Source of the DNA: an uncultured Deferribacteres bacterium
Lineage (GTDB): Bacteria > Zhuqueibacterota > Zhuqueibacteria > Zhuqueibacterales > Geothermadaptataceae
Direction of reading: 5' to 3'
Length of the DNA stretch: 46,962 nt
Assembly (NCBI GenBank): GCA_964014485.1
Contig: CAXHAT010000040.1
Coordinates: 1 to 46,962 of the forward strand
In this document: positions 1,331-35,083 of the stretch, in pieces
How the letters are laid out: every line of letters begins with the position of its first letter
Position numbering within the stretch: position 1 is the stretch's first letter
Notes under the pieces: generated by a model
What the model saw: the letters and a program-made list of their open reading frames with translations, nothing else
Told to the model about the DNA's origin: nothing
Database searches by the model: none
Translations under genes and position numbers: made by a program

Positions 1331-3040
1331 GTGAAACTATCAAGAATGACTTCGACAAATTATCGAATCTTGCTTTTTGCCTGCCTGCTTTTTTCCTGCG
1401 CCGGACAAGTTGCGCCCACCGGCGGCCCGGAAGATAAAAAGCCGCCGCAAATCATCTCAACTTCCCCGGAAAAAAAAGCTGTCAATGTGCCGCTTGATTC
1501 CGAGGTCGTTTTTCGGTTTAGCGAAAAAATAGACCGCGAAACTTTCCGGCAAGCTTTTTTCATCACCCCCAGACCGCGCGGCAGAATCCGCTTCGATGTT
1601 GGCGGCACAAAGGCTCGTCTGCGATTCAGCGAGCCGCTTCTGCAAGATCGCACTTACATTATTACGCTGGGGACGGATTTGAAAGACATGCGCCGCGTGT
1701 CCATGGCGCAGTCGTTCACGCTGGCATTTTCGACCGGCGACAGTCTCGACGAGGGCGAGATCAACGGCAAGATTTACGGAAGCAATGTGCAAGGCGTCAG
1801 CTTGTGGGCGTATATTCTGCCTGACAGCGGAGGCGCGGACGAGATCGATCCGCACAAAAAGAGCGGCGACTACATCACCCAGGCCGGGCAAAACGGCGAT
1901 TTTCAGATTCCGTTCATTTCAAGAGGGAAATACCGCGTTTTCGCCGTGCATGACCAAGGACGAAACGGCGTCTATGACCCTTCCGAAGATAGAATCGGCG
2001 TGCCGCTGCGCGACGTTGAGTTAACGCCGGGGAATCTGACGTACAACAATCTTGCTTTCCGCATGTTTCGAGAAGACACGACCGGCCCGGCGTTGGATAA
2101 TGTCGTCATGCACAACAACGCCGTCATCGAAGCGCGATTTGACGAGCCTGTCACAGCTCTTGATACGACGTGGACGGAACGTTTCACGCTCGTAAACATG
2201 GAAAACGGCGATACTCTGCGTGCGCTCGCCGCCTCTCGTTTACCACTGGATGCGAGAATTTTTCAACTCCGCGTTGCACCGCAGGCGTCGGCGAGTGATG
2301 TGACTTTCTTTAGCTCAGGCGTCACGGACACGGCAGGCAATGCGATTGACGACGCATTTGCTAATCTTGAGTTTACGACGAACGCCGCTTCGGACGCAGA
2401 ATCGCCGCAAATTTTGCGAATTGTTCCCGAAGGCAGTAGCCGAAATCACACGCTTGAGCAGGGTGTGCGGATTATTTTTAATGAATGGATGCAGCGTCCG
2501 GATTCGGTTGTTGGGCTTGCGGTTGCGGATTCTGCAAACGCGCCGGTCTCGGGAAGCCTGGCTTGGAACAACCCTTTTGAGCTTGTGTTTACGCCCGACA
2601 CGTTTTTGCAGAGCGCGTCGGAATACAGAATTTCACTGCAAAACGCCGCGCTCACTGATTTAGCGGGCAACGCCTTGTTCGACACGCTCGGTACTCGCGT
2701 CTTTTATACTTACAACGTTGACACGCTGACCTCGATTTCGGGCGCGATTATCGACAGTTCCGCCGCCGATTCAGCGCGCATTTTTCTTACGGCGCGCCAA
2801 GCTGGAGGAGAAAAGAGAACATACAAAACAATAATCGACGGGCCGAGGGAGTATCGATTTGACAAGATGCTGCCGGGCGTATTTGTGATTGATGGATTTA
2901 TTGACGGCAACGCGAACGGCAAGTATGATTTTGGGGAAATTTTTCCATTCAAACCCGCGGAGCGCTTCTTTATCTATCCAGATTCGATTAAAACGCGCTC
3001 GCGTTGGCCGAATGAGGGCAATGATATTACGATCAAATAA
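1331..3040 (+). CDS. Lipoprotein with bacterial Ig-like (Big_5/SbsA-like) domains
   Basis: Lipobox LFSC followed by AGQVAPTGGPEDKKPP. Repeated F-S/N-E ... Y-x-I/L ... D-x-x-G-N Ig motifs. Typical FCB-group family. The exact start is uncertain. Confidence 0.8.
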   Translation: MKLSRMTSTNYRILLFACLLFSCAGQVAPTGGPEDKKPPQIISTSPEKKAVNVPLDSEVVFRFSEKIDRETFRQAFFITPRPRGRIRFDVGGTKARLRFSEPLLQDRTYIITLGTDLKDMRRVSMAQSFTLAFSTGDSLDEGEINGKIYGSNVQGVSLWAYILPDSGGADEIDPHKKSGDYITQAGQNGDFQIPFISRGKYRVFAVHDQGRNGVYDPSEDRIGVPLRDVELTPGNLTYNNLAFRMFREDTTGPALDNVVMHNNAVIEARFDEPVTALDTTWTERFTLVNMENGDTLRALAASRLPLDARIFQLRVAPQASASDVTFFSSGVTDTAGNAIDDAFANLEFTTNAASDAESPQILRIVPEGSSRNHTLEQGVRIIFNEWMQRPDSVVGLAVADSANAPVSGSLAWNNPFELVFTPDTFLQSASEYRISLQNAALTDLAGNALFDTLGTRVFYTYNVDTLTSISGAIIDSSAADSARIFLTARQAGGEKRTYKTIIDGPREYRFDKMLPGVFVIDGFIDGNANGKYDFGEIFPFKPAERFFIYPDSIKTRSRWPNEGNDITIK

Positions 3041-3871: not shown

Positions 3872-5734
3872 TCAGCGGTAAATATCTGCCTGGAGGCCAA
3901 ATTGATTCGATGATTTGCGCTGAGCTCTGCGCATATGATACGCGTAAGCGCTTAGTTTGACGCTTCCGCCCAACTTCAAGCCGACCTGCCCAAATATTCT
4001 TTCGCCTTCCCCGGAAAACGCCGTCGCTCGAACTGCACCCGGCAATTGGTACTCGACCTGGTAAATTCTGCCGTCAAAACTTGGGATCGAAAAATAGGAG
4101 TAACGAACGGTTCCGGAAACCGGGTTGACTCTTAGTTGAAATTCGTGCATTTGCGCAAGCCCGATTTCCGGGCGCATACGTTCTTCTTTATAGCGAGAAA
4201 TATCGATTCGGAAGCGATAACGCAGAACACGATGCAAATAAGTTTGCAGTTGCAGCCGCCATTGAAAGCTTTTTTCATTCAAGAGAACATCGCTCGGGCG
4301 CTGTTGAAGCAATGTGTCTGAGAACGTGGTATGGTCGCCAGTACCGTAGCGAAACCTGGAGAGCATGGTTGTTTTTCGAAAGACGGTTTTCTCCCATTGC
4401 AAACCGAGACGCTCGTTTGCACTAGGTTGCGGTATAAAAAACGTTCGCCACAATGATGCGCTTTTCGCGGCAAAGAGCGTAAATACGCCCATATTTTTTC
4501 GCGTCCGCAAACCAAAATAGAACGTTTGCTGATTGGAAGTCTCGCCGATGAATTCTCCCGGCAATGCGCCAAACGCATTTTGAAACCCCGGCTCGGCATA
4601 CCACCAGGCGATGGTGATTTGTGATTCCGGACGGCGTATTTTTAAGCCCGCAACAACTGCATTTTGTCTGTCGCTGTTCGCCCACTCAAAAAGCCAGCGA
4701 AACTTGCCGTCGTGAACAGATGATTGCATGAAGGCGCCGTAAATTAGGTTTTCCGTTCCGCGAAATGCAAAGCGATTTCGAGTCGTATCAGGCGAAAAAA
4801 TTGGGCGATTGTAGCGATGGCGGAAAATGTTCGCGCCGATGACGACGGCTGAAGAAGCGGAAACTGACAGCGATGCGCCAAGCGAAGTCTCTCGTAAAGC
4901 GTCTTTGGCTGCAATTTCGTTTTCCGTCCGATGATGGCCGGATTGCGGCAAACTGGAGGCGAAACCTTCAGAGGAAATTCTTGCGTCACGGGACGAGCGG
5001 GAAGCAAAGAAAAACGCGGTTACTGGGCCGCGATTTCCTTCCAAAGCGCCGCCGCGAAAAGCCAGATTTTCTTGCACTGATCTAAACGGCCGGACATTTG
5101 GCGACTCAAACCGCAGGACGCTTTCCGGAGAAGTGAGCGATGCGCCGCCAAAAGCTCCTGCTGCAACCAACCCGAGCCCTGCGCGTGTTGTAAAATCTCC
5201 AAGAGTCAGCCTGAGACCTCGTTTCGGGAACTCATGGCGTGTAAATCCGGATGAAAAATCTGCAAGCTGCGGCTCACCCGCATCTTTTTCTGTGATCAAT
5301 CCAAAAGAACTATTTCCGCGTTCAGCATCGAATCGAATCTGTTGCTGCCAGCCTTCGTCGAGGCGGCGGATTGTACGATTCCTGCCAAAGACGTTAACCG
5401 CAGCATGTACTTTTACGCTGAAAATTGCTTTGACGATTTCCATTGGAAGGCCGATACTGTCACTAATTTGGCGAAGCTTGATGTTCGGAAAATGCGTCGC
5501 GTACAACTGCATCAGCGTTTCAATTTGAGAAAGCTCGAGAAACCAGATTCTCTTGAGTTCGTCAAGAGCGACTTCGTTGATTCGAATCGGCTCTTCAACG
5601 AAAGTGCGAATGATGGCTTCAAGTTCGTCGGTCTCCAGATCTTCGTATTCTTCAAGCATGGTTTCTATGCTTTGCGCTTGCAACGACAGAGGAAAGAACA
5701 ACAGGAAAAAGTAGAGGGCGAAGCGCAAGATCAT
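3872..5734 (-). CDS. Helix-hairpin-helix (ComEA-like) domain protein with C-terminal beta-barrel
   Basis: Signal peptide, P-I-R-I-N...ELKRI HhH-like segment and the conserved EKDAGE motif of this FCB family. Its start overlaps the upstream stop (ATGA). Confidence 0.75.
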   Translation of the reverse strand: MILRFALYFFLLFFPLSLQAQSIETMLEEYEDLETDELEAIIRTFVEEPIRINEVALDELKRIWFLELSQIETLMQLYATHFPNIKLRQISDSIGLPMEIVKAIFSVKVHAAVNVFGRNRTIRRLDEGWQQQIRFDAERGNSSFGLITEKDAGEPQLADFSSGFTRHEFPKRGLRLTLGDFTTRAGLGLVAAGAFGGASLTSPESVLRFESPNVRPFRSVQENLAFRGGALEGNRGPVTAFFFASRSSRDARISSEGFASSLPQSGHHRTENEIAAKDALRETSLGASLSVSASSAVVIGANIFRHRYNRPIFSPDTTRNRFAFRGTENLIYGAFMQSSVHDGKFRWLFEWANSDRQNAVVAGLKIRRPESQITIAWWYAEPGFQNAFGALPGEFIGETSNQQTFYFGLRTRKNMGVFTLFAAKSASLWRTFFIPQPSANERLGLQWEKTVFRKTTMLSRFRYGTGDHTTFSDTLLQQRPSDVLLNEKSFQWRLQLQTYLHRVLRYRFRIDISRYKEERMRPEIGLAQMHEFQLRVNPVSGTVRYSYFSIPSFDGRIYQVEYQLPGAVRATAFSGEGERIFGQVGLKLGGSVKLSAYAYHMRRAQRKSSNQFGLQADIYR

Positions 5735-6537
5735 CGTTTGCCCCCCAGAATCGTGAATGAAAAAACATGGGATTGGCTCAAGGCAAAATGGTTTTGAAAC
5801 GCATAATCTAATGCAATTCGTGAGAAACGTAATCCAAAGCCTCCGGCAAATGAACTTGCGCCGTTCAAGCCCGTTCCTGCACGGAGAACGAGTACGCCGG
5901 CGGGCTGAAAATCGAAGGCTAACTTGTAATCCGGTTCAAAGCCTTGTTCTTGCGCGATTTCGAAATACAATTGGGCTTTGTCGAAAAGCGAAATTCGAGC
6001 GCCGGTGAGCAAACTTCTGATCGGCTTTTCGCCGCTTTGGCCAATTTCTGTCGCCGCCAGATTCTTCACCAAAAAACCGATCTCCAGTTGTTGATGGACG
6101 GGGGCGAACACGCCAAAATCGAACGCAACGTTCCCGGCCTCGCCGTAGTTTTCGACGATCAAGCGTCTGCGCTTAAATTTAAAGCCAACATGAAGTTTTG
6201 GCGAGAGCCGGAGAGCGGGCGCTGCGACGTAAAGCTTTTCATGAAAAAGCGCATTGCCGTACTGCAAATATCCTGCGCCGATGCTGTATCCTTTCCCGGC
6301 ATAATTTGCGGCCAGGGCGTAAACATCAATTTCGGTAAGACCAAAGGGATTATAGTGATTGAGCCAAAACGAGAAGTGGTCTTGCGTCGTCAATAAAGCA
6401 GGATTCAAAAATGTCGAGCCTGCGTGCTCATCGACAAGGGTTTCCTGAGAGTTCAACGCCATCGATCGTGAACCGATTGGCAAGGATTGGGAAAATGCCT
6501 GTGCGACAGAAAAGAGAGAAATGAGAAATGTGCGCAT
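5731..6537 (-). CDS. Outer-membrane beta-barrel, PorV/PorQ-like family
   Basis: Signal peptide; G-x-R-S-M-A-L ... F-L-N-P-A N-terminus; LRAG and DYAF..H..L..SH C-terminal motifs. Confidence 0.65.
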   Translation of the reverse strand: MRTFLISLFSVAQAFSQSLPIGSRSMALNSQETLVDEHAGSTFLNPALLTTQDHFSFWLNHYNPFGLTEIDVYALAANYAGKGYSIGAGYLQYGNALFHEKLYVAAPALRLSPKLHVGFKFKRRRLIVENYGEAGNVAFDFGVFAPVHQQLEIGFLVKNLAATEIGQSGEKPIRSLLTGARISLFDKAQLYFEIAQEQGFEPDYKLAFDFQPAGVLVLRAGTGLNGASSFAGGFGLRFSRIALDYAFQNHFALSQSHVFSFTILGGKR

Positions 6538-7776: not shown

Positions 7777-8634
7777 TTACTGCCGTCCTCTCAAAAACAC
7801 AAGCCGTTTGACGATGCGTTCCCGCCCCGAGGTTAAAACATAAAAGTAAATTCCCGCAGGTGCAAAAGCGCCTTTTCCATTTCTGCCGTCCCAAGCCGCA
7901 TTGTACGCGCCGCCTGCAAGCGGAGCGTTGATGATCGACTTTATTTCTCTGCCAAGCAAATCATAAATCGTCAGCTTCGTGACGTTCTTCTCCGCGCCCG
8001 GCCCAAGATTAAATTTGAAAACCGTTCGGTCGACAAATGGGTTTGGCGCGTTGTTTTGCAAGGAAAAATCTTTAGGATTCGAAGCTTCTTCAGTGACGTT
8101 TGTCGTTGTGAGCAACTCATCCAGCTTGTCGAAGACTTCCTGCTTGTGCGTTTCGTAACGCGACGAGTAGCGCGTGCTTTGCGGCGTGATGTACTGAATG
8201 ACGCCGCTCGCATCAACAATCGCAATGCTGCTGCGGTCGATGTTATTCCAGGCATTGCCGAAAAATGCGCCTTGCATGGCCAGCGGATAAGTCACATTTC
8301 GGCCTGAGCCGCGAGCGTAGTTGTTGACCTGGCTGAATGAACCGTCCCAAACGTCAATGCCGACCACGGCCACGCCCTTGTCCTTATATGCCAGCCAAAG
8401 TTCGTTTTCCTGTTTCTGAGCCTCAGAAATGCAGGGGCCTCAGTAGCTGCCGAAAAAATTGTAGACGATAATCTGTCCGGCAAGTTCGCTCGACGAAAAC
8501 GTGCCTTGTATCACGCCTTCCTGGTATTTTGGCAGTTCTGTAAACGCTGGCGCCGTATCGCCGACCGTCTGCGCATGAGCAAACCCGACAACAAGCAGAC
8601 ACGCGAGTAACAACAAAAGTCTTACTTTTTTCAT
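7777..8634 (-). CDS. Secreted selenocysteine-containing redoxin (TlpA/AhpC-TSA-like, UxxC) with C-terminal FlgD-Ig/T9SS sorting domain, 285 aa
   Basis: ORFs 8440-8634 and 7777-8373 are in the same frame, separated only by TGA (8442-8440). Read-through gives VYNFFGSY-U-GPCISEAQKQENELWLAYKDKGVAVVGID. There is a signal peptide, a VGDTAPAFT start of domain, and an NxPNPF...IYDLLGREI...WDG...AGIYFY C-terminal domain. Confidence 0.88.
8409..8435 (-). promoter_or_regulatory. Putative bacterial SECIS hairpin
   Basis: mRNA after the UGA: GGCC-CCUG-CA-UUUCUGA-GGC-UCAGAAA-CAGG. This gives a 4+7 bp stem with a 2-nt bulge and a G-starting apical loop 17 nt from the UGA. Confidence 0.75.
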
Positions 8635-8653
8635 ATGTTGATTCCTGAATTTG

Positions 8654-10033
8654 TCAGAATAACTTCACGCCTAAAAATCTGTCAAGTACCGTCAGAATGA
8701 AAACTATGCCGAGAACGATCGGTGCAATGTAGCTGACGGTCATATCGATAAATTTTTGTACGAACGACCCGGCGTAGCTCTCATTGCCAATCATGATCTG
8801 CTCATGCAGGTTTGATTTACGCCAAACATAGGCGGCGAAGACGGAGATCAAAAGTCCGCCCAGGGGCAAGAATGAATCGTTGGCAATGTATCCAACAAAA
8901 CTCATGAAATCCGTTGTCGCTACGCCCGGCAGCCCGAATGTCGTCGACCAGAAATCGGAAGCGCCGTTTGAGAGTAGGGAAGGAATGCCAATGACAAAAA
9001 TTGCCGCTGCCGTTCCCCAAACCGCGGTCTTTCTTTTGACCTTATGTTCATCAACGATATAGGCGACTGGCACCTCAAGCAACGAAACTGTAGAAGTTAA
9101 TGCGGCGAATGAAAGGAGGAGAAAAAAGAGCGTGCCGATAACCACGCCAAGAATCGGGCCGAGCGTCTCGAATACGCCGGGAAGCGTCGCGAAAATAAGC
9201 CCGGCGCCGCCGTTCGGCGGCAGCCCTTGCGAAAAAACAAGCGGGAACATCATCAAACCGGCGACGAAAGCGATGCCGACGTCCGCAAGCGTAATCATCG
9301 CGGCTGAAGTCACAATATTTTCTTTGCGGGACAGATAACTGCCGTAAGTAATTAAAGCGCCCATGCCGAGAGAGAGCGAGAAAAACGCTTGACCGAGCGC
9401 GCTATAAACCACCTGAAAATCGAGCTTGGAAAAATCCGGGACAAGATAGAACGAAACGCCTTCCATTGCCCGGGGCAGCGTGAAAGCGTAAATCACCAGA
9501 AAAACCATAATGCCGAGCAAAGAAGGCATCAATATTTTTGCGGCGCGTTCAATACCGCCGCTCACGCCGCGCGATACAATAAAAGCCGTCATACTCATGA
9601 AAATGATTCCGTAAAGCCCAATTTTTAGCCAGTCTTTGACAAACTCGCCAAACTGTGAGCCGATCTCAAAATTGGCCGAGATCATTTCAACAACGTACCC
9701 AAACGCCCACGCTGCGACGACATTATAAAAGGACAAGATCAGCACGCCGGAGCCAATCCCAAGTAGGCCGAGAAACGCCCAGTTTTTATAGCCAAGCGCT
9801 TTGTAGGCGCCGACGGGGTTTTTGCTCGTTTTTCGCCCGATGGCGATTTCCGTAACCATCACCGGAAAACAGAGGACAAAGCAGAAAAACAGATAGAGCA
9901 GAACAAAAGCTGCGCCGCCGCTGGCGCCGACTTTGAATGGAAATTGCCAAATATTACCCAGCCCGATGGCGGAGCCTGCCGCGGCGAGTACAAATCCGAT
10001 CCGTGAGCTCCACTGCCCTCTTTGCGCGTTCAT
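8654..10033 (-). CDS. Sodium-dependent transporter, NSS/SNF (LeuT-like) family
   Basis: WSSRIGFVLAAAGSAIGLGNIWQFP and GQAFFSLSLGMGALITYGSY signatures; about 11 hydrophobic segments. Confidence 0.95.
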   Translation of the reverse strand: MNAQRGQWSSRIGFVLAAAGSAIGLGNIWQFPFKVGASGGAAFVLLYLFFCFVLCFPVMVTEIAIGRKTSKNPVGAYKALGYKNWAFLGLLGIGSGVLILSFYNVVAAWAFGYVVEMISANFEIGSQFGEFVKDWLKIGLYGIIFMSMTAFIVSRGVSGGIERAAKILMPSLLGIMVFLVIYAFTLPRAMEGVSFYLVPDFSKLDFQVVYSALGQAFFSLSLGMGALITYGSYLSRKENIVTSAAMITLADVGIAFVAGLMMFPLVFSQGLPPNGGAGLIFATLPGVFETLGPILGVVIGTLFFLLLSFAALTSTVSLLEVPVAYIVDEHKVKRKTAVWGTAAAIFVIGIPSLLSNGASDFWSTTFGLPGVATTDFMSFVGYIANDSFLPLGGLLISVFAAYVWRKSNLHEQIMIGNESYAGSFVQKFIDMTVSYIAPIVLGIVFILTVLDRFLGVKLF

Positions 10034-27410: not shown

Positions 27411-27739
27411 ACGTAAAAATACCGCGTTCGATTGATTTGCGGCGACAACTTTTTAAATTCTATCGCGCAGTTGAATATTATAGAATAAACGCTTCAGGCA
27501 AGAAATTCCAGACGTTTTACAATTGGTGAAAAACGAGGATGGAGGAGGGATGGTGGTATTTTCTTGATCTTATTATAGTGGTTTGTATTATTGAAGCAAG
27601 AGGGAGATCGTGGGATATGTATCAAATTTGGTTCTGAAACGGGAGATCTTTCACGAAAACTCGCACGAAATATGGGCAGGATGTGCGACTCCCTATTGAG
27701 CAGAATAATCCAATGTTAGATTATAAATGGACTAATGTG

Positions 27740-28603
27740 ATGTCTATCACTATCCCAGATGCATCTTGGTATAAAAGAAAAAGCTCTAAAGTGGATGCTC
27801 CTGCTTCATGCCCTTATGCAAATGTACATAAATGCCGAAGGTATTACGCAAGCATCCGCGTGCTTGGGGAGGCTGGAATGATAACTGATATCAGAGATGA
27901 TAAAAAAAAGGCTTTAGATGCATTTTGGGAAGATTCTGGATTATCGCCAGTTATAGCCGAAGAAGACACTGGCATAATGGGAGCTAATGGCAGATCGAGT
28001 ATTTTTACTAATTTTTGCCCTGAGGTGTCTTATGCTTATTTTAATTATTACGCAAGTTTTTTGGCAAAATATGCGGATGAAATTGATGAAATTAGCGGCC
28101 ACAAAAGGGCTGAAGGCGATAATATTCCCAACGATTGGAGATTTCTTTGGGCGGATGTGACGGCATGCCATTTTTTAGATTGCAATGTTTACAATCAAGT
28201 TCATGACTTCAATTCGAAGAATATTAGCAAATTTGACGAGCTCGTTCATTCCAATATTTTAGTCTTAATAAATAGAATGAACCGATGCATAGAAGAGAAA
28301 GATCCGGCTGGTGTTTTGCATGCTGCAGCAAATATATTGGAAACAACTGCTAAAGATATTATTAAGGATGACAGTATAGAGAATCAAACTTTAGGGAGTT
28401 TCGTTTATAAATACGAGAAAGAATCAAAACTACCCGAAGAGATAAAGAGCATAGTTGGGAAAATATACAATCTAAGAAGCAAGATGCCTTTATCCGGGCA
28501 TGGTAGCACTCGCTCACCAAATATAGAAATGCAAGATGCAGTTGTGATTGCTGCTGTAACAAAATGTATTGTTGAAATTGAATATCGTATTCAACAAATT
28601 TAG
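27740..28603 (+). CDS. AT-rich hypothetical protein: Cys-rich N-domain plus Abi_C/HEPN-like C-domain
   Basis: CPYANVHKCRRYY, NFCPE and CHFLDC in the N-half. DPAGVLHAAANILETTAKDII...LRSKMPLSGHG in the C-half. Visibly lower GC than its neighbours. Confidence 0.6.
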   Translation: MSITIPDASWYKRKSSKVDAPASCPYANVHKCRRYYASIRVLGEAGMITDIRDDKKKALDAFWEDSGLSPVIAEEDTGIMGANGRSSIFTNFCPEVSYAYFNYYASFLAKYADEIDEISGHKRAEGDNIPNDWRFLWADVTACHFLDCNVYNQVHDFNSKNISKFDELVHSNILVLINRMNRCIEEKDPAGVLHAAANILETTAKDIIKDDSIENQTLGSFVYKYEKESKLPEEIKSIVGKIYNLRSKMPLSGHGSTRSPNIEMQDAVVIAAVTKCIVEIEYRIQQI

Positions 28604-28754: not shown

Positions 28755-29513
28755 TCAACCGTAGCGGCCTTCGATGTAGTCGGCGGTTTTTTTGTGTTTG
28801 GGGTTGAGAAAGAGGTCTTCGGTGCGGGCGTGCTCGACGATTTCGCCCAGATACATGTAAATGCACTCGTGGCTGGCCCGTCGCGCTTGCGCCATGTTGT
28901 GGGTAACGATGACAATGGTGTACTCGCCCGCCAATTCCATCATCAATTCTTCAACAGCACTGGTCGCTTCGGTATCAAGAGCGGAGCAAGGTTCATCCAT
29001 GAGAATGACTTGCGGCTTCAGGGGGAGCAGGCGAGCGATGCAGAGCTTTTGCTGTTGTTCGAGCTGCAGTTCTGTCGCCTTGGTTTTGAGCTTATCTTTA
29101 AAATCATCCCAAAGAAAAACTGTGCGCAGCGATTGCTCAACAATATCGTCAAGTTCAGATTTTTTCACGCCGCCGGAGTGGATTTTCATCCCGAAAATCA
29201 CGTTATCGTAAACCGAAATCGGCAGCGGATTGGGCCGCTGAAAAACCATGCCGACGGACTTGCGCAGTTCCGTCAACGAAACGTCTTCGTCGTAGATGTT
29301 TTTTTCGAGAATGCGAATTTCACCAGTCGTCGTCACGTAGCCGTAGCGTTCGTTCATGCGGTTGAAGCAGCGCAGCAAGGTCGACTTGCCGCAGCCGGAC
29401 GGGCCGATGAGCGATGTGATCAAACCGTCCTTTATATTGATGCTGACGTCAATCAGCGCTTGAAAATCGGCGTACCAGAGATTGAGATGTTCGGTTTCGA
29501 TACTGTATTTCAT
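28755..29513 (-). CDS. pstB: Phosphate ABC transporter ATP-binding protein (canonical Walker A/Q/B/H, degenerate signature)
   Basis: GPSGCGKST, GMVFQRPNP, ILMDEPCSALD, VTHNMAQA and C-terminal YIEGRYG. The signature reads LQLEQQQK instead of LSGGQQQR. Confidence 0.92.
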   Translation of the reverse strand: MKYSIETEHLNLWYADFQALIDVSINIKDGLITSLIGPSGCGKSTLLRCFNRMNERYGYVTTTGEIRILEKNIYDEDVSLTELRKSVGMVFQRPNPLPISVYDNVIFGMKIHSGGVKKSELDDIVEQSLRTVFLWDDFKDKLKTKATELQLEQQQKLCIARLLPLKPQVILMDEPCSALDTEATSAVEELMMELAGEYTIVIVTHNMAQARRASHECIYMYLGEIVEHARTEDLFLNPKHKKTADYIEGRYG

Positions 29514-30277
29514 TAGCCAAAAATTCCGTTGACGTAGTCATATGTCATTTTATTCGCCGTGTTGTCGGAAAAGATCACGTCGTTGTCGTCGATTTCGATC
29601 AACTCGCTGTTGAAGATAAACGCAGTTCTGTCCGCCAGCCGCCGCGCTTGCTGCACGAGGTTTGTGACCAGAATAATCGTCATTTGTGAGCGCAATTCCT
29701 TGAGTACGTCTTCAATGCGCATCGTCGTGACCGGGTCGACGGCGATGGAAAATTCATCGAGACAGAGGATTTCGGGCTGATGGGAGAGCGCCCGGGCAAT
29801 TGTCAGTCGCTGCTGCTGACCGCCCGAAAGCTTGGTGCCGAGGCTGTCCAGACGATCTTCAACTTCTTCCCACAACGCCGCTTGCTTTAAACAGCGCTCG
29901 ACAAGTTCGTCCAATTCGCCTTTGTCGCGCATCCCCGCGGCGCGCGGCGCGAATGCGACGTTGTCGTAAATGGAAAGCGGCAGACCGACCGGAAGCGGAA
30001 AGACCATGCCGACGCGGCGACGCAAGCCGTGAACGTTTTTCATATCCCGCACGTTTTCCCCGTCGATTTTCACGTCGCCTTCAACTTTGGCGGTCGGAAT
30101 AAAATCTATTGTTCGGTTGATCGTCTTCAAAAACGTCGTTTTGCCGGACTGCGCCGGGCCGATGACGCCGAGAATTTCATTGCGATGAATCTCGAGTGAG
30201 ATATCCTTGAGCGCTTGTTTCTGGCCGTACCAGACGTTCAGATTTGAAATTTCGATGAATTTGTCAGAATTCGACAT
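29513..30277 (-). CDS. pstB: Phosphate ABC transporter ATP-binding protein (canonical signature, degenerate Q- and H-loops)
   Basis: GPAQSGKTT, GMVFPLP (no Gln), LSGGQQQR, LCLDEFSIAVDP, LVTNLVQQA (no His) and C-terminal YVNGIFG. Confidence 0.9.
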   Translation of the reverse strand: MSNSDKFIEISNLNVWYGQKQALKDISLEIHRNEILGVIGPAQSGKTTFLKTINRTIDFIPTAKVEGDVKIDGENVRDMKNVHGLRRRVGMVFPLPVGLPLSIYDNVAFAPRAAGMRDKGELDELVERCLKQAALWEEVEDRLDSLGTKLSGGQQQRLTIARALSHQPEILCLDEFSIAVDPVTTMRIEDVLKELRSQMTIILVTNLVQQARRLADRTAFIFNSELIEIDDNDVIFSDNTANKMTYDYVNGIFG

Positions 30278-30287
30278 GTTTTATTCT

Positions 30288-31037
30288 TCAATGTACCGTG
30301 TCAGATTCGCTCGCAGCCGCCAGGGCTGCGCCGATTATTCCTGCTTCGTTTCGTAGCTGCGCCGTAACGACTTCGACGCCGCACTTTAAATAGTCGCCCC
30401 ACTTTTTCTGTTTTTTACTCGCTCCGCCGCCAAGGACAATGAGGTTCGGCGAAAGCAGTCTGCACATATGCTCTAAATATTCGCTAAACCGTTCCGCCCA
30501 TTCCTGCCAGGACAGATCTTCCCTTTTGCGCGTTGCGTCGGAAGCGTATTGTTCAGCAATCATTCCGTGCAGCAACACATGACCGAACTCCGTGTTCGGC
30601 ACGAGTTTACCATTGACAACCAAGCAAGTGCCTAACCCGGTGCCGACGGTGACCAAGAAAATAGCGCCGCGACGATTTTTGCCAACGCCGAATTTTGCTT
30701 CCGCAAAACCGGCGGCGTCAGCGTCATTGACGACTTTGACTTTGCAGTTCGTAGCTTTTGAGAGAAGCTTTTCGACTTTGACTTCCAACCACTTCTCTGA
30801 AATATTGGCGGCGGATTTGACGACGCCGTCTAATACAATCGCCGGAAAACCGCACCCGATCGGACCTTGCCAATTAAAATGCTCAACCAGCGCGGCGACA
30901 GTCTCCGCGACAGCGTTAGGCGTTGCAGGCTGCGGCGTTGATATTCTGTGCCGCTCCGCCAAGAGCTCGCCGGTTTTCGTATTCACCAGCGCTCCTTTGA
31001 TTCCTGAACCGCCAATGTCAATGCCTAAAACTTGCAT
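30288..31037 (-). CDS. ppgK: Polyphosphate glucokinase (ROK family)
   Basis: [50 protein letters not shown] and [11 protein letters not shown]. Confidence 0.9.
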
Positions 31038-31214: not shown

Positions 31215-32120
31215 CTACCATTTTTTGCGAGAACGTAAATAAACTCTCAGACCAATTGAAATGGCGTTCATCATGAGCACTGTGCCAAGCAATGCGATGG
31301 CAGTGCCGAATTGCAGCGCGGGATTTACATCAGGAACCTGGGTTGATAGGGTAAAAAGATGCATGGAAAGCGCCATAAATTGGTCGAGCAAGCCGTAGGC
31401 GAACGGATCGCCCTCAGCAATAGCTTTGTAGAAAACAGCTCCAGTGAACATGATCGGGGCCGTTTCGCCAGCGGCGCGTGAAACTTCCAGAATCACGCCG
31501 GTGAGGATACCGCTGACCGAGTTCGGCAAAACGATTTTTTTGATCGTCTGCCATTTGGTGGCGCCTACGTTCCAGCACGCTTCGCGAAAGGCTTGCGGAA
31601 CGGCGTTGAGCGCTTCGCGCGTACCGGTAATGATGACCGGCAAATTCATAATGCCGACGGTCAATGCCGCCGCCAAAAGCGAGCGCCCGAATTGTGCTGC
31701 GAGTACAAAAGCGCCAAGTCCAAAAAGCGCATGAACAATGCTGGGAACGCCGGCCAGGTTGACAACGGCCAAGTTGCAGAAGCGCGTCAACCAGTTGTCC
31801 TTCGCATATTCATTCAAATAAATCGCGGCCATCACGCCGATGGGCCCGGCAACGCACAGCGACCCGAGCACAAGATAGATGGTGCCCAGAAACGGCGCCC
31901 AAACGCCGCCTTCGCGCATGCCGCGAATCGGATTTGAAAGGATGTAATCGAGTGAAAGAACCGGCCACGCTTTGTAAACCATGAACACGACGATTACGAT
32001 TAGGGGCGTGATCATCAAAAGCGTCATGCCCAAGAAAGCGCTTTTCGCGGCTGTTTCACTGCGTTTTGAATTGCGTGAAACTCTTGTTTCAGTAAAATGC
32101 TGTAATGCTGTCGTCTCCAA
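31215..32120 (-). CDS. pstA: Phosphate ABC transporter permease PstA
   Basis: AIYLNEY, NLAGVPSIV, REA..VGATKWQTI, SRAAGETAPI. Confidence 0.93.
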   Translation of the reverse strand: METTALQHFTETRVSRNSKRSETAAKSAFLGMTLLMITPLIVIVVFMVYKAWPVLSLDYILSNPIRGMREGGVWAPFLGTIYLVLGSLCVAGPIGVMAAIYLNEYAKDNWLTRFCNLAVVNLAGVPSIVHALFGLGAFVLAAQFGRSLLAAALTVGIMNLPVIITGTREALNAVPQAFREACWNVGATKWQTIKKIVLPNSVSGILTGVILEVSRAAGETAPIMFTGAVFYKAIAEGDPFAYGLLDQFMALSMHLFTLSTQVPDVNPALQFGTAIALLGTVLMMNAISIGLRVYLRSRKKW

Positions 32121-32141: not shown

Positions 32142-33044
32142 TTATTCTGTTTTGCCGCGAATGCCTTTTACCACCAGATCGGCAAGCAAATTGACGAAAA
32201 AGGTTATGGTAAAAAGCAGGATACCGATAATGAAAAGCACTTGATAATGGTCTGAACCGACCGAGGTTTCACCCAGTTCCGCCGCTATTGTCGCTGTTAG
32301 GGTGCGCACTGAATCAAGCAGGCTGGTGGGAAGGTTTACGGCATGACCTGTTGCCATAAGAACCGCCATTGTCTCGCCGATGGCTCTGCCCGCACCAAGA
32401 AGCACTGCTGCCAAAAGACCGTTTTTGGCCGCCGGCAGCAGAACTTTGTAAATCATTTGCCAACGTGAGGCGCCCAGTGCAAAGGCCGCTTCCCTGTAAG
32501 AGTCTGGAACGGCCTTCAGGGCGTCTTCACCAATGGAAACGATAATCGGCAAGCTCATGAGAGCGAGAATCATACCGCCGTTTAATACCGTCAAACCGAT
32601 AGGCGCATCAAAAAGGTCGATGATCAACCCGTTCATGATTGTGAGGCCGATGAAGCCCCATACCACCGACGGGATGGCGGCCAAAAGCTCGATGACGACT
32701 TTCAGCGTTTCCTTGGTTTTGGGACCGCTGAATTCCGAGACGTAAATTGCGGCTCCCAGGCCAAACGGCACGGCGATGACAAGCGCGAATACCGTCACGC
32801 TGAACGTTCCCGCCATCAAGGCGAGAACGCCGTAGCGCTTGTTGGAATTCGAGTCCGGGTACCATTCCGGGCTGGTGAGGAATTGGCCGAAATCGAGCCC
32901 GTCCAGGAAAAAGGGCGCGCCTTCTCTAAATACAAAGAAGAAGATACTGAATATGAAGATCATGGCGCTGACGCCCGCAAGCTTGATCAGCGTCTCAATG
33001 ATCGGTTCCGAAATCTTTTCGAAACGGCTTCGACGGTCTTGCAT
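32142..33044 (-). CDS. pstC: Phosphate ABC transporter permease PstC
   Basis: IELLAAIPSVVWG, EAAFALGASRWQ, GRAIGETMAVLM, RTLTATIAAELGE. Confidence 0.94.
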   Translation of the reverse strand: MQDRRSRFEKISEPIIETLIKLAGVSAMIFIFSIFFFVFREGAPFFLDGLDFGQFLTSPEWYPDSNSNKRYGVLALMAGTFSVTVFALVIAVPFGLGAAIYVSEFSGPKTKETLKVVIELLAAIPSVVWGFIGLTIMNGLIIDLFDAPIGLTVLNGGMILALMSLPIIVSIGEDALKAVPDSYREAAFALGASRWQMIYKVLLPAAKNGLLAAVLLGAGRAIGETMAVLMATGHAVNLPTSLLDSVRTLTATIAAELGETSVGSDHYQVLFIIGILLFTITFFVNLLADLVVKGIRGKTE

Positions 33045-33050
33045 AAAATA

Positions 33051-33968
33051 TTAATCTCCGGATGAACCGTCCCCGCCGCCAGCTTGCAACGGTACATAAC
33101 CCGATTCAGAAACCATTGCCTGTCCTGCGGCCGACATCGCCCAATCGATATACGCTTTAACTTCCGGCGTGGGTTCGCCGATGGTGTACAGGTAAAGCGG
33201 ACGTGCAACCGGGTAGTCGCCGGAGAGGGCGTTAGCAACGCTTGGTGCGAACGCTTCACCGCCCTCTTCTTTTGAAACTTTCAGCATTTTGATATGATCC
33301 GTGGCGTAGCCCATGCCGCTGTAACCAATGGCGCAAGGCGTTTTTTCAACGAGTTCGACAACGTCTTTGGAACCGTGCAGATCGCGAGAGCCAAGCTTAA
33401 AATCACCTTTCTTGCCCAACAGCGTTTCGCGAAAGTAGTGGTAGGTGCCGGAATTATTCTGGCGGCTGACGCGAATGATCTCGCCGTTTGAACAATCAGC
33501 ATTGTTGACGCCGAGCTGCGACCATTCCGTCGTCGTGCCGTTTTCTCCGTAAATTCCCGCTAATTGAGGAATTGAAATTTTTTCCATAGGGTTGTTCTGA
33601 TGGACGTAGACGGCGAGCGCGTCGAAGCCGACGATAAACTCTTTCGGCTCAACGCCGTGTGCAGCTTTGACTCGCTCAATTTCTTCCGGCTTGATGGATC
33701 GGCTGGCGTTTGCAATATCAACGGTTCCGTTGATCAATGCAGCGATGCCGGTTCCTGAACCGCCGCCTGAAACTTCTACTGATACGTTGGGGTTGACTTC
33801 AGCATACTTTTCCGCCCAAGCTTGCGCCAGGTTGACAATCGTGTCAGAACCCTGGTTCTGAATAATCATTTTTCCGCCGGAACCGCCGTCGGAAGTTCCG
33901 CCGCCACAGCCCAAAATCGCCAGACTGAGCGCGGCCGCCGCTACGATGTTAAGAATACTTTTCTTCAT
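33051..33968 (-). CDS. pstS: Phosphate ABC transporter substrate-binding lipoprotein PstS
   Basis: RBS AGGAGGAG, lipobox ILGC, QGSDT, GGGSGTGIAALING, SRQNNSGT and YPVARPLY. Confidence 0.94.
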   Translation of the reverse strand: MKKSILNIVAAAALSLAILGCGGGTSDGGSGGKMIIQNQGSDTIVNLAQAWAEKYAEVNPNVSVEVSGGGSGTGIAALINGTVDIANASRSIKPEEIERVKAAHGVEPKEFIVGFDALAVYVHQNNPMEKISIPQLAGIYGENGTTTEWSQLGVNNADCSNGEIIRVSRQNNSGTYHYFRETLLGKKGDFKLGSRDLHGSKDVVELVEKTPCAIGYSGMGYATDHIKMLKVSKEEGGEAFAPSVANALSGDYPVARPLYLYTIGEPTPEVKAYIDWAMSAAGQAMVSESGYVPLQAGGGDGSSGD

Positions 33969-33979
33969 TGTCTCCTCCT

Positions 33980-35083
33980 TCATTCATGATTGCTTTCACC
34001 GCGAATCGCTTGAATAAGGTCGCGGATATGGGTGTCAAGATATTTGTAAGTCTTTTCATACGCCGCCTGAATTTCTTCCTCCGTTCCTTGCACTTGCGAA
34101 GGGTCTTTCACTTTCCAACGAATGCTGACCGTTTTGGTCGGCGCAGGCGGCAAGGCCACCTCCGCTTCTTTGCAAAGCGAAACGATGACGGCGTAATGAT
34201 CCAGGTTGAGAATTTGGTTAAGGTATTTCGACGTTTGGTGAGAAATATCAATGTCCTTCTCTTCCATGAAATCAACAGTTTTTTTGTCGATTTCCGTTGG
34301 AGAAATTCCAGCGCTGTTGAAATGGAACCCTTCGATTCCAATGGAATCCGCGATGCCCAGCGCCATTTGCCCGCGACATGCGTCGTGTTCGTCCACGAAC
34401 AATACACGCGAGACTTCCTTGCCTTGGTGCTTAATGTTCTGGCCCGTTGTCATGTAAAGCACTTCTTCGCAAATATTGGTCGCTTGATCTGCTGCGCGCT
34501 CGAATCGACTGGCAATAATCATCAACGGCGAGAGCGCTTCAAGAGGCAGTTCGTCGCGCTCGTGGCGCTTAATCAAACTGTCATGCGCTGAAGTTCTGGC
34601 TTCGTCAACCTTGTCTTCCATCGCGATTGTCGATTTGGCCAATTCCGGATTTTGTCGCGTAAACGCCAGCAAAGCATTCTTGACCATCGGAATGGACAAT
34701 TGTGCAATTTGTGATATTTTGCCGTCACTGAACCTGTGTTCGTAGTCGCTAATCGCTAGATACTGGCGAGCGATACTTTCAGCATAATCGCCCACGCGCT
34801 CCAATTCGTTGTTGATTTTAATTGAAGCGTAGACGAACCTCAGGTGCCCTGCTACCGGTTGCTGCCGTACGATAAATTCGAGGCAAAGCCTGTCGAGCTC
34901 TTTTTCAAGCTCATCAATGTAACGATCGCGCAGAATCACCGAGTATGCCAATTCGCGATTGTTTTCCGTTAGCGCTTGCAAGCTTGACTCTAACGATGCA
35001 ACCACCAGCTCGCCCATTTCGGTGATTTTCTTCCGAATCAGGTCGGCGTCGCGTTGCAGACTTTCTTCCAAATGTGTTGACAT
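33980..35083 (-). CDS. phoU: PhoU fused to a C-terminal degenerate ArsC/LMW-PTP domain
   Basis: Two PhoU repeats (QQPVAGHLR, ELERVGD, FERAADQATNICEEV), then RVLFVDEHDACRGQMA...SAG...DISHQTSK...W.V.DP. Confidence 0.9.
   Translation of the reverse strand: MSTHLEESLQRDADLIRKKITEMGELVVASLESSLQALTENNRELAYSVILRDRYIDELEKELDRLCLEFIVRQQPVAGHLRFVYASIKINNELERVGDYAESIARQYLAISDYEHRFSDGKISQIAQLSIPMVKNALLAFTRQNPELAKSTIAMEDKVDEARTSAHDSLIKRHERDELPLEALSPLMIIASRFERAADQATNICEEVLYMTTGQNIKHQGKEVSRVLFVDEHDACRGQMALGIADSIGIEGFHFNSAGISPTEIDKKTVDFMEEKDIDISHQTSKYLNQILNLDHYAVIVSLCKEAEVALPPAPTKTVSIRWKVKDPSQVQGTEEEIQAAYEKTYKYLDTHIRDLIQAIRGESNHE

Follow-up and report, generated by a model that had tools for sequence, protein, structure and literature searches.

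We have analyzed a stretch of DNA of 46,962 nt (contig CAXHAT010000040.1, assembly GCA_964014485.1; from here on the window) that carries on its minus strand a pst operon, in which two adjacent genes code for different ATPase subunits, PstB-1 and PstB-2. Textbooks present Pst as the high-affinity phosphate importer; it is also a signalling hub of the Pho regulon, and models of it assume a symmetric PstB homodimer. In the operon described here neither chain holds a full set of consensus motifs: PstB-1 lacks Gln in the Q-loop and His in the H-loop, PstB-2 has no LSGGQ signature, and, at the level of sequence, the changes of the two different subunits converge on one composite ATP site. The explanation that we consider probable is an obligate PstB-1/PstB-2 heterodimer in which one ATP site is catalytic and the other is not. 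Judging from the genomes compared below, the asymmetric pair is an old and strictly conserved family that extends across many phyla.

Two subunits with complementary motif changes

The two genes and their signature motifs are located as follows:

29513 to 30277, minus strand: PstB-1 (alpha type), 254 aa, with the signature intact and Walker A, Q-loop, D-loop and H-loop altered.
29816 to 29830, minus strand: signature LSGGQ of PstB-1, which would complete the consensus site.
28755 to 29513, minus strand: PstB-2 (beta type), 252 aa, with consensus Walker A, Q-loop, Walker B, D-loop and H-loop.
29055 to 29069, minus strand: degenerate signature LQLEQ of PstB-2, with Glu at position 4 (by alignment to E. 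coli PstB).

Base 29513 is common to both genes, the TAA stop of the first and the ATG start of the second being read as TAATG, so that the overlap reported in a preliminary description of this DNA is confirmed. PstB-1 and PstB-2 are separate open reading frames (ORFs) with a stop codon between them, not one fused polypeptide, and share 37% identity. The best family for both is the PstB equivalog TIGR00972 (290.1 bits for PstB-1 and 333.2 bits for PstB-2), in both cases below its curated cut-off of 343.2 bits.

The motif changes were checked by alignment to E. coli PstB (PDB 9k3x). In PstB-1 the Q-loop GMVFQKP has become GMVFPLP, with Gln replaced by Pro at Pro94 (29996-29998), the H-loop VTHN has become VTNL, with His replaced by Asn at Asn206 (29660-29662), and the segment past Walker B reads DEFSIAVD in place of DEPCSALD, which turns the D-loop SALD into IAVD. 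One more change, absent from the preliminary description, is found in Walker A, GPAQSGKT, where a Gln stands in place of the usual middle Gly. PstB-1 retains the Lys-Thr of Walker A, the Asp174-Glu175 of Walker B, the aromatic A-loop residue Tyr17 and the signature LSGGQQQR. The sole departure of PstB-2 from consensus is the signature, LQLEQ instead of LSGGQ. The motif states that had been given in the preliminary description for PstB-1 (LSGGQQQR kept, Q-loop and H-loop residues lost, DEFSIAVD) and for PstB-2 (consensus apart from LQLEQ) were each borne out by this alignment.

In an ATP-binding cassette (ABC) protein both subunits contribute to each ATP site, one with its Walker-side motifs and the other with its signature, a rule that has been restated for PstB (PMC12976172). 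From this rule and the motifs found it follows that a homodimer of either subunit would have two defective sites, and that in a heterodimer one site would be fully consensus and the other would have five altered elements. It had been proposed before that the losses in Q-loop, H-loop and signature would all fall into the same composite site of a heterodimer, and this follows from the confirmed motifs and from their strict co-occurrence, detailed in the next sections.

Conservation of the pair

Out of 40 relatives, 19 have a PstB-1 ortholog (74–85% identity; one is cut by the contig start) and each of them also has a PstB-2 ortholog. Counting the window and these 19 relatives, the altered motifs are invariant in 20/20 PstB-1 sequences and in 18/18 in-locus PstB-2 rows, the lower number of the latter being due to two relatives with PstB-2 genes outside the fetched loci. 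The same altered motifs were present in the 120 best database homologs of PstB-1 (120/120), and over 45 PstB-1 sequences of 68–81% identity the invariant residues include P94-P100, D174-A179, D181 and T205-L207.

Scanning one genome per species, we found at least 553 stretches encoding relatives, and the detailed work, with a motif census based on alignment, was carried out on the best 80 loci. By their record titles, in which labels of metagenome bins can be wrong as to phylum, most belong to Poribacteria, and the others to KSB1/Zhuqueibacterota, Latescibacterota, Calditrichaceae, Verrucomicrobiota, Desulfobacterota, Myxococcota, Acidobacteriota and Planctomycetia. In all of them (80/80) an alpha gene, of the PstB-1 type, is followed by a beta gene, of the PstB-2 type, at a distance of up to about 300 nt in 75 loci and of 0.6–2.6 kb in the remaining five. 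The beta signature was LQLEQ in 76 of these loci, LQLDQ in two, LLLEQ in one and LSLDQ in one.

A survey of 167 genomes of the window's phylum gave the same picture. A PstB-1 ortholog (E<=1e-85) was present in 45 genomes, and in 45/45 its contig also carried a PstB-2 ortholog in the same orientation, within about 110 nt in 43 pairs and with an insert of 2.3–2.5 kb in two. PstB-2 orthologs were found in these 45 genomes and in three more where the locus is cut by a contig end, and none of the 167 genomes had PstB-1 without PstB-2. Two genomes in the counts of relatives and of the phylum, G016 and G023, are unpublished, and leaving them out gives 43/43 for the phylum. In ten relatives (75–100% complete) there was no PstB-like gene beyond the pair at E<=1e-30, and therefore the pair must power their Pst system.

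Both pstB genes are under purifying selection. The median ratio of non-synonymous to synonymous substitution rates (dN/dS, NG86 method, taken from pairs with dS of 0.1–1.5) was 0.155 for PstB-1 (286 pairs) and 0.126 for PstB-2 (315 pairs). With these values and the 80/80 loci, the substitutions are neither unique to this assembly nor under relaxed selection, two outcomes that the preliminary description had named as contrary to its proposal.

Genes located between pstB-1 and pstB-2 could be identified in some loci. In L014 (2249-3761) and L016, from relatives G022 and G021, they code for a DUF47/PhoU_div protein and a phosphate permease of the PHO4/PiT family (Pfam E 2.6e-51 and 8.7e-60). In L069 (6786-9224) there is a tetratricopeptide repeat (TPR) protein gene together with a gene for an IS605-type OrfB/TnpB-like transposase, and in L089 the TPR gene stands alone.

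A second, more diverse lineage

A search among representatives at 50% identity, in which the PstB-1 family is collapsed, returned mostly fragments and canonical PstBs, with P0138, P0170 and P0234 as leads. It also revealed other PstB-like proteins with partial degeneracy, and P0138 was traced into metagenome contigs. The search with P0138 returned 80 metagenome loci, 76 with an alpha-type gene and four with a canonical single PstB. In the alpha subunit of this second lineage the Q-loop Gln is replaced by Ala and the H-loop His by Asn (VTNNT), LSGGQ is intact and the segment DEPCSGLD is present. A beta partner was found in every locus with room for it downstream (63/63), the other 13 of the 76 being cut by contig ends. 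This beta has consensus Walker A, Q-loop, Walker B and H-loop, and its signature is LSLEQ, LPLDQ, LTLEQ, LSPEQ, LSGEQ, LTEEQ or similar. The lineage (Gln to Ala, His to Asn, with an acidic partner signature) is new here.

Taking both lineages together, position 4 of the beta signature is Glu or Asp in 143/143 complete pairs, while 156/156 alpha sequences retain the Walker B Asp-Glu and the Walker A Lys-Thr/Ser, and LSGGQ is invariant in the same 156/156. The degeneracy is graded: the beta signatures go from the single change LSGEQ up to LQLEQ, and at position 4 of the alpha Walker A the lineage of the window has Gln, where the second lineage has Gly, Asn, Lys or Ser. The two lineages thus form a graded natural series (LSGEQ to LQLEQ in the signature; Gly to Asn to Gln in Walker A) that could guide mutagenesis. 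Whether the Q-loop and H-loop losses always go with the signature loss had been left in the preliminary description as something to check, and they do so in 80/80 genome loci, 63/63 testable metagenome loci and 45/45 genomes of the phylum. The complementary pattern is not the product of chance, nor is it a quirk of one assembly.

Origin of the two subunit types

Each subunit type has one origin. In a tree of 117 PstB sequences, the 44 alpha rows all fell in one split and the 44 beta rows in another (Shimodaira-Hasegawa-like approximate likelihood ratio test, SH-aLRT, 99 each), with the window's type as a derived subgroup within alpha and within beta (support 100). According to the trees, neither type is the nearest relative of the other. 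When the five motif stretches were removed the beta split still had a support of 98, and with the motif columns removed a tree with alpha held together had a better likelihood than the free search (approximately unbiased test, p-AU 0.80). A free quick tree without the motif columns did split alpha in two (2 changes), a result that we discarded as a search artefact because the constrained tree was 25 log-likelihood units better.

The pairwise distances of the alpha subunits are correlated with those of the beta partners (Mantel r 0.863, with 0/999 permutations as high), also within the two lineages taken separately (r 0.62 and 0.66). This fits joint inheritance of the two genes; since related loci share their history, the correlation is not proof of co-evolution.

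Model of the complex

PstB-1 and PstB-2 were modelled together with two ATP and two Mg from our own alignments, and the calibration of the tool covers neither ligands nor alignments supplied by the user. The interface score ipSAE was 0.63 (0.00 for the best of three controls), a pass that may rest on likeness to solved PstB dimers; in the calibration the mark was reached by 116/157 solved complexes and by 2/215 mismatched pairs. The runs agreed in at least 89% of the contacts, and the predicted local distance difference test (pLDDT) of the partner was at least 88. The confident contacts are one-sided. They bring the signature (149-157) and the D-loop (178-187) of PstB-1 against the Walker A (36-44), A-loop (14, 17) and H-loop (205, 207) of PstB-2, with the lowest expected errors between PstB-1 149-157 and PstB-2 Walker A 36-44. 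The list of confident contacts contains neither the PstB-2 signature nor most of the PstB-1 Walker A, which is no evidence that these contacts are absent.

Proposed organization and comparison with known transporters

Under the heterodimer explanation, PstB-1 and PstB-2 would be the heterodimeric ATPase of a phosphate importer that depends on PstS, acting on its membrane pair PstC-PstA. That this heterodimer is formed in the cell is suggested by the motifs, the strict pairing, the purifying selection, the single origins and the complex model. The hydrolytic, consensus site would be made of the Walker A, Q-loop, Walker B and H-loop of PstB-2 and the LSGGQ of PstB-1. The other site, with the altered Walker A, the Pro Q-loop and the Asn H-loop of PstB-1 facing the LQLEQ of PstB-2, would not hydrolyse ATP at a useful rate. 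Most likely it still binds nucleotide, because PstB-1 keeps the Lys-Thr, the Asp-Glu and the adenine-stacking Tyr, and it could serve as a standing clamp or as an allosteric site that holds or tunes the dimer, as in heterodimeric exporters; the preliminary description put forward a regulatory role, or docking of PhoU, as another candidate function. The predicted cost of the pump would then be one ATP per cycle.

The best solved match for both subunits is E. coli PstSCAB (PDB 9k3x, 9k3y, 9k3s; PMC12976172), with E values of 3e-73 and 4.5e-66, and the operon there has, in the published account, the same list of parts (PstS, PstC, PstA, PstB-type ATPases and PhoU). However, E. coli has two identical PstBs and two consensus sites, whereas the window encodes two different subunits, with one consensus and one altered site. 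Firmicutes also have two adjacent pstB genes in the pst operon (PstB1/PstB2 of E. faecalis, PstBA/PstBB of B. subtilis), tandem genes that, according to the authors of PMC12096839, had not been studied earlier. Genetics assigned unequal roles to those of E. faecalis, but both copies have canonical motifs, with no complementary degeneracy described (PMC12096839), so that the window pair differs from them.

Degenerate sites are frequent in exporters (PMC3971661). In TM287/288, TAP1/2, CFTR and Pdr5, as in the pair described here, the Walker-side defects of one subunit face the defective signature of the other, and the degenerate signature of Pdr5, LNVEQ, has Glu at position 4 like the LQLEQ of PstB-2 (PMC7756269, PMC8421411). 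This non-hydrolytic site of Pdr5 is reported to bind ATP (PMC8421411, PMC7756269), and the degenerate site of TM287/288 to hold nucleotide (among PMC8421411, PMC7756269 and PMC3971661). These exporters have other membrane folds, and their kinship to the PstB pair is only through the shared ABC ATPase fold. The likeness to exporters put forward in the preliminary description therefore stands for the complementary pattern but not in full, as most exporter degenerate sites have lost the catalytic Glu of Walker B, and Pdr5 also the Walker A Lys, while PstB-1 keeps both.

Among importers, one active site was enough in the histidine importer, as cited in PMC3971661. For degenerate sites by sequence, the literature search gave only RbsA and NupO of B. 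subtilis, with one of two ATP sites degenerate (PMC11466899), which agrees with the earlier statement that such an arrangement is unusual in a type I importer. In RbsA and NupO the ATPase domains are fused in one chain, the transporters are type II-like and the degenerate site is devoid of the Walker A Lys (PMC11466899); the window pair, in contrast, is encoded by two genes, belongs to a type I importer and keeps the Walker A Lys. In the literature searched, the main texts of papers outside subscription journals, we found no description of a complementary degenerate PstB pair. The feature is invisible in databases because pipelines name both genes "phosphate ABC transporter ATP-binding protein". 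In a large, old branch of Pst that is spread over many environmental phyla, an asymmetric motor with a single consensus site appears to have become fixed. If our explanation is true, this would be a natural type I importer working on one hydrolytic site, with a bearing on the old question of the ATP cost per transport cycle, and a tractable bacterial model for the function of degenerate sites, studied so far mainly in exporters.

Alternative explanations

Several points weigh against the heterodimer with a single hydrolytic site. PstB-1 retains the catalytic Walker B Glu, so that some residual hydrolysis is possible and we infer, rather than observe, that the altered site is inactive. The Walker A change of Gly to Gln could weaken nucleotide binding and leave this site empty instead of clamped by ATP. 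In the model the altered D-loop of PstB-1 (IAVD) touches the Walker A and H-loop of PstB-2, and the consensus site is therefore not wholly untouched and may differ from a canonical one; of the earlier claim that this site stays essentially consensus, what holds is the consensus state of the PstB-2 motifs and of the PstB-1 LSGGQ, and not that of the D-loop that reaches in. The model resembles solved PstB dimers (9k3x), and its pass may reflect this likeness and not binding. Finally, E. faecalis has a canonical tandem with unequal, partly substitutable roles (PMC12096839), so that two pstB genes in tandem do not by themselves imply an obligate heterodimer.

In a different explanation, transport would be driven by a PstB-2 homodimer that tolerates LQLEQ, and PstB-1, as an ATPase-like protein with an accessory or regulatory task (it might be a partner of PhoU), would stand outside the stoichiometry of the pump. 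In E. faecalis, one of the tandem PstBs was reported to be essential and the other accessory and replaceable (PMC12096839), and a contact between PhoU and PstB has been reported in E. coli, as cited in PMC12976172. PstB-2 does retain every catalytic motif of its own half-site. Nevertheless, in such a homodimer both signatures would be LQLEQ, and the signature Gly residues, which in ABC proteins meet the gamma-phosphate of ATP, would be replaced by a bulky Leu and an acidic Glu. The invariance of LSGGQ in all the alphas would follow from its completing a working site but has no explanation in a mere regulator, the alpha-beta pairing is strict, with partner distances that track each other, and the confident contacts of the model are precisely those of the PstB-1 signature against the PstB-2 Walker A. 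We regard this explanation as unlikely. Slightly less weight is given to a functionally symmetric heterodimer in which both sites hydrolyse ATP and the substitutions merely retune the kinetics. It would agree with what PstB-1 retains (the Lys of Walker A, the Asp-Glu of Walker B and an aromatic residue in the A-loop), and in some ABC proteins H-loop or Q-loop mutants are partly active. Against it, five elements of one site are altered together, the changes are fixed across two lineages with a complementary pattern every time, and the change of signature resembles the non-hydrolytic site of Pdr5 (PMC8421411, PMC7756269). The idea that one of the pstB genes is a functionless duplicate in decay, to which the scores of both below the curated PstB cut-off might point, has practically no probability left: it is ruled out by the median dN/dS of 0.13–0.16, by intact frames in about 240 loci and by the invariance of the altered motifs themselves, with 68–81% identity kept across loci titled with several phyla.

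A more speculative explanation, to which we give little credence, is that the altered site is a sensor that closes on ADP or on ADP plus phosphate instead of ATP, so that cytoplasmic phosphate or energy charge would gate the catalytic site. Its starting point is the invariant acidic residue at position 4 of the signature, at the expected place of the ATP gamma-phosphate. The signal could be handed on to PhoU, whose fusion partner in this type of operon is a phosphatase-like domain that has apparently lost its nucleophile and may bind an oxyanion (see below). If true, an ancient branch of Pst spread over several phyla would sense internal phosphate by means of a dead ATP site.

The operon and neighboring genes

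The gene order on the minus strand is PhoU fusion, PstS, PstC, PstA, ppgK, PstB-1 and PstB-2. The features upstream of the pstB pair are:

33980 to 35083, minus strand: PhoU with an ArsC/low-molecular-weight (LMW)-phosphatase-like domain, first gene of the operon; TIGR02135, 167.5 bits (residues 10-217), arsC_pI258 family (229-355), Pfam PhoU and LMWPc.
33051 to 33983, minus strand: PstS, phosphate-binding protein; TIGR02136, 231 bits (cut-off 206.6).
32142 to 33044, minus strand: PstC permease; TIGR02138, 282 bits.
31215 to 32120, minus strand: PstA permease; TIGR00974, 248.8 bits.
30288 to 31037, minus strand: polyphosphate-glucose phosphotransferase (ppgK), between pstA and pstB-1; NF045942, 327 bits (cut-off 250).

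The phosphate-binding Arg and Glu residues of PstC and PstA have been identified in E. coli (PMC12976172). Their equivalents are retained in the window, in GRAIGETMAV of PstC (E. coli Arg237 and Glu241) and in SRAAGETAP of PstA (Arg220 and Glu224), so the pstB pair is encoded together with pstS, pstC and pstA whose phosphate-binding residues are intact. The ppgK gene was seen between pstA and pstB-1 in 0/19 loci of relatives and in 0/80 genome loci; because it has this position only in the window, it looks like a local insertion that links the use of polyphosphate to the pst operon.

The fusion of PhoU with the ArsC/LMWPc-like domain upstream of pstS is also present in 34 other loci. At the presumed position of the catalytic Cys of ArsC/LMW-phosphatase enzymes, the 35 aligned fusions (window included) have Asp, Ala or Ser (35/35), and the Cys-Arg after this position is mostly retained. 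From its sequence, the domain may be a non-catalytic module that binds an oxyanion.

The window's own genome has on another contig (L002) a second pst locus, with pstC, pstA and a single pstB (1489-2301, minus strand). Its product is near-canonical, consensus except for the signature LSLGQ, and scores 314.9 bits, below the TIGR00972 cut-off. Just downstream of pstB-2, on the opposite strand of the window, there is an ORF of 306 aa (27683-28603, plus strand) with no match in Pfam. Among sequencing runs, three from one study were found to contain this DNA and no RNA run was, a listing without bearing on expression.

A different arrangement was seen in 32 loci titled Poribacteria (L061-L113). These do not have the PhoU fusion upstream, and they carry a K+-channel-like gene (Ion_trans) between pstA and pstB-1. 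The genes downstream of pstB-2 code for a further permease-like protein, a third PstB-like protein and a PhoU without fusion. One example is:

L062, titled Poribacteria: 5168-5929, 7816-8706 and 8740-9558.

The third PstB of these loci is degenerate in its own right, with Arg or another residue in the Q-loop, Asn in the H-loop and a signature that reads LSTGQ, LSNGQ or LSIGQ.

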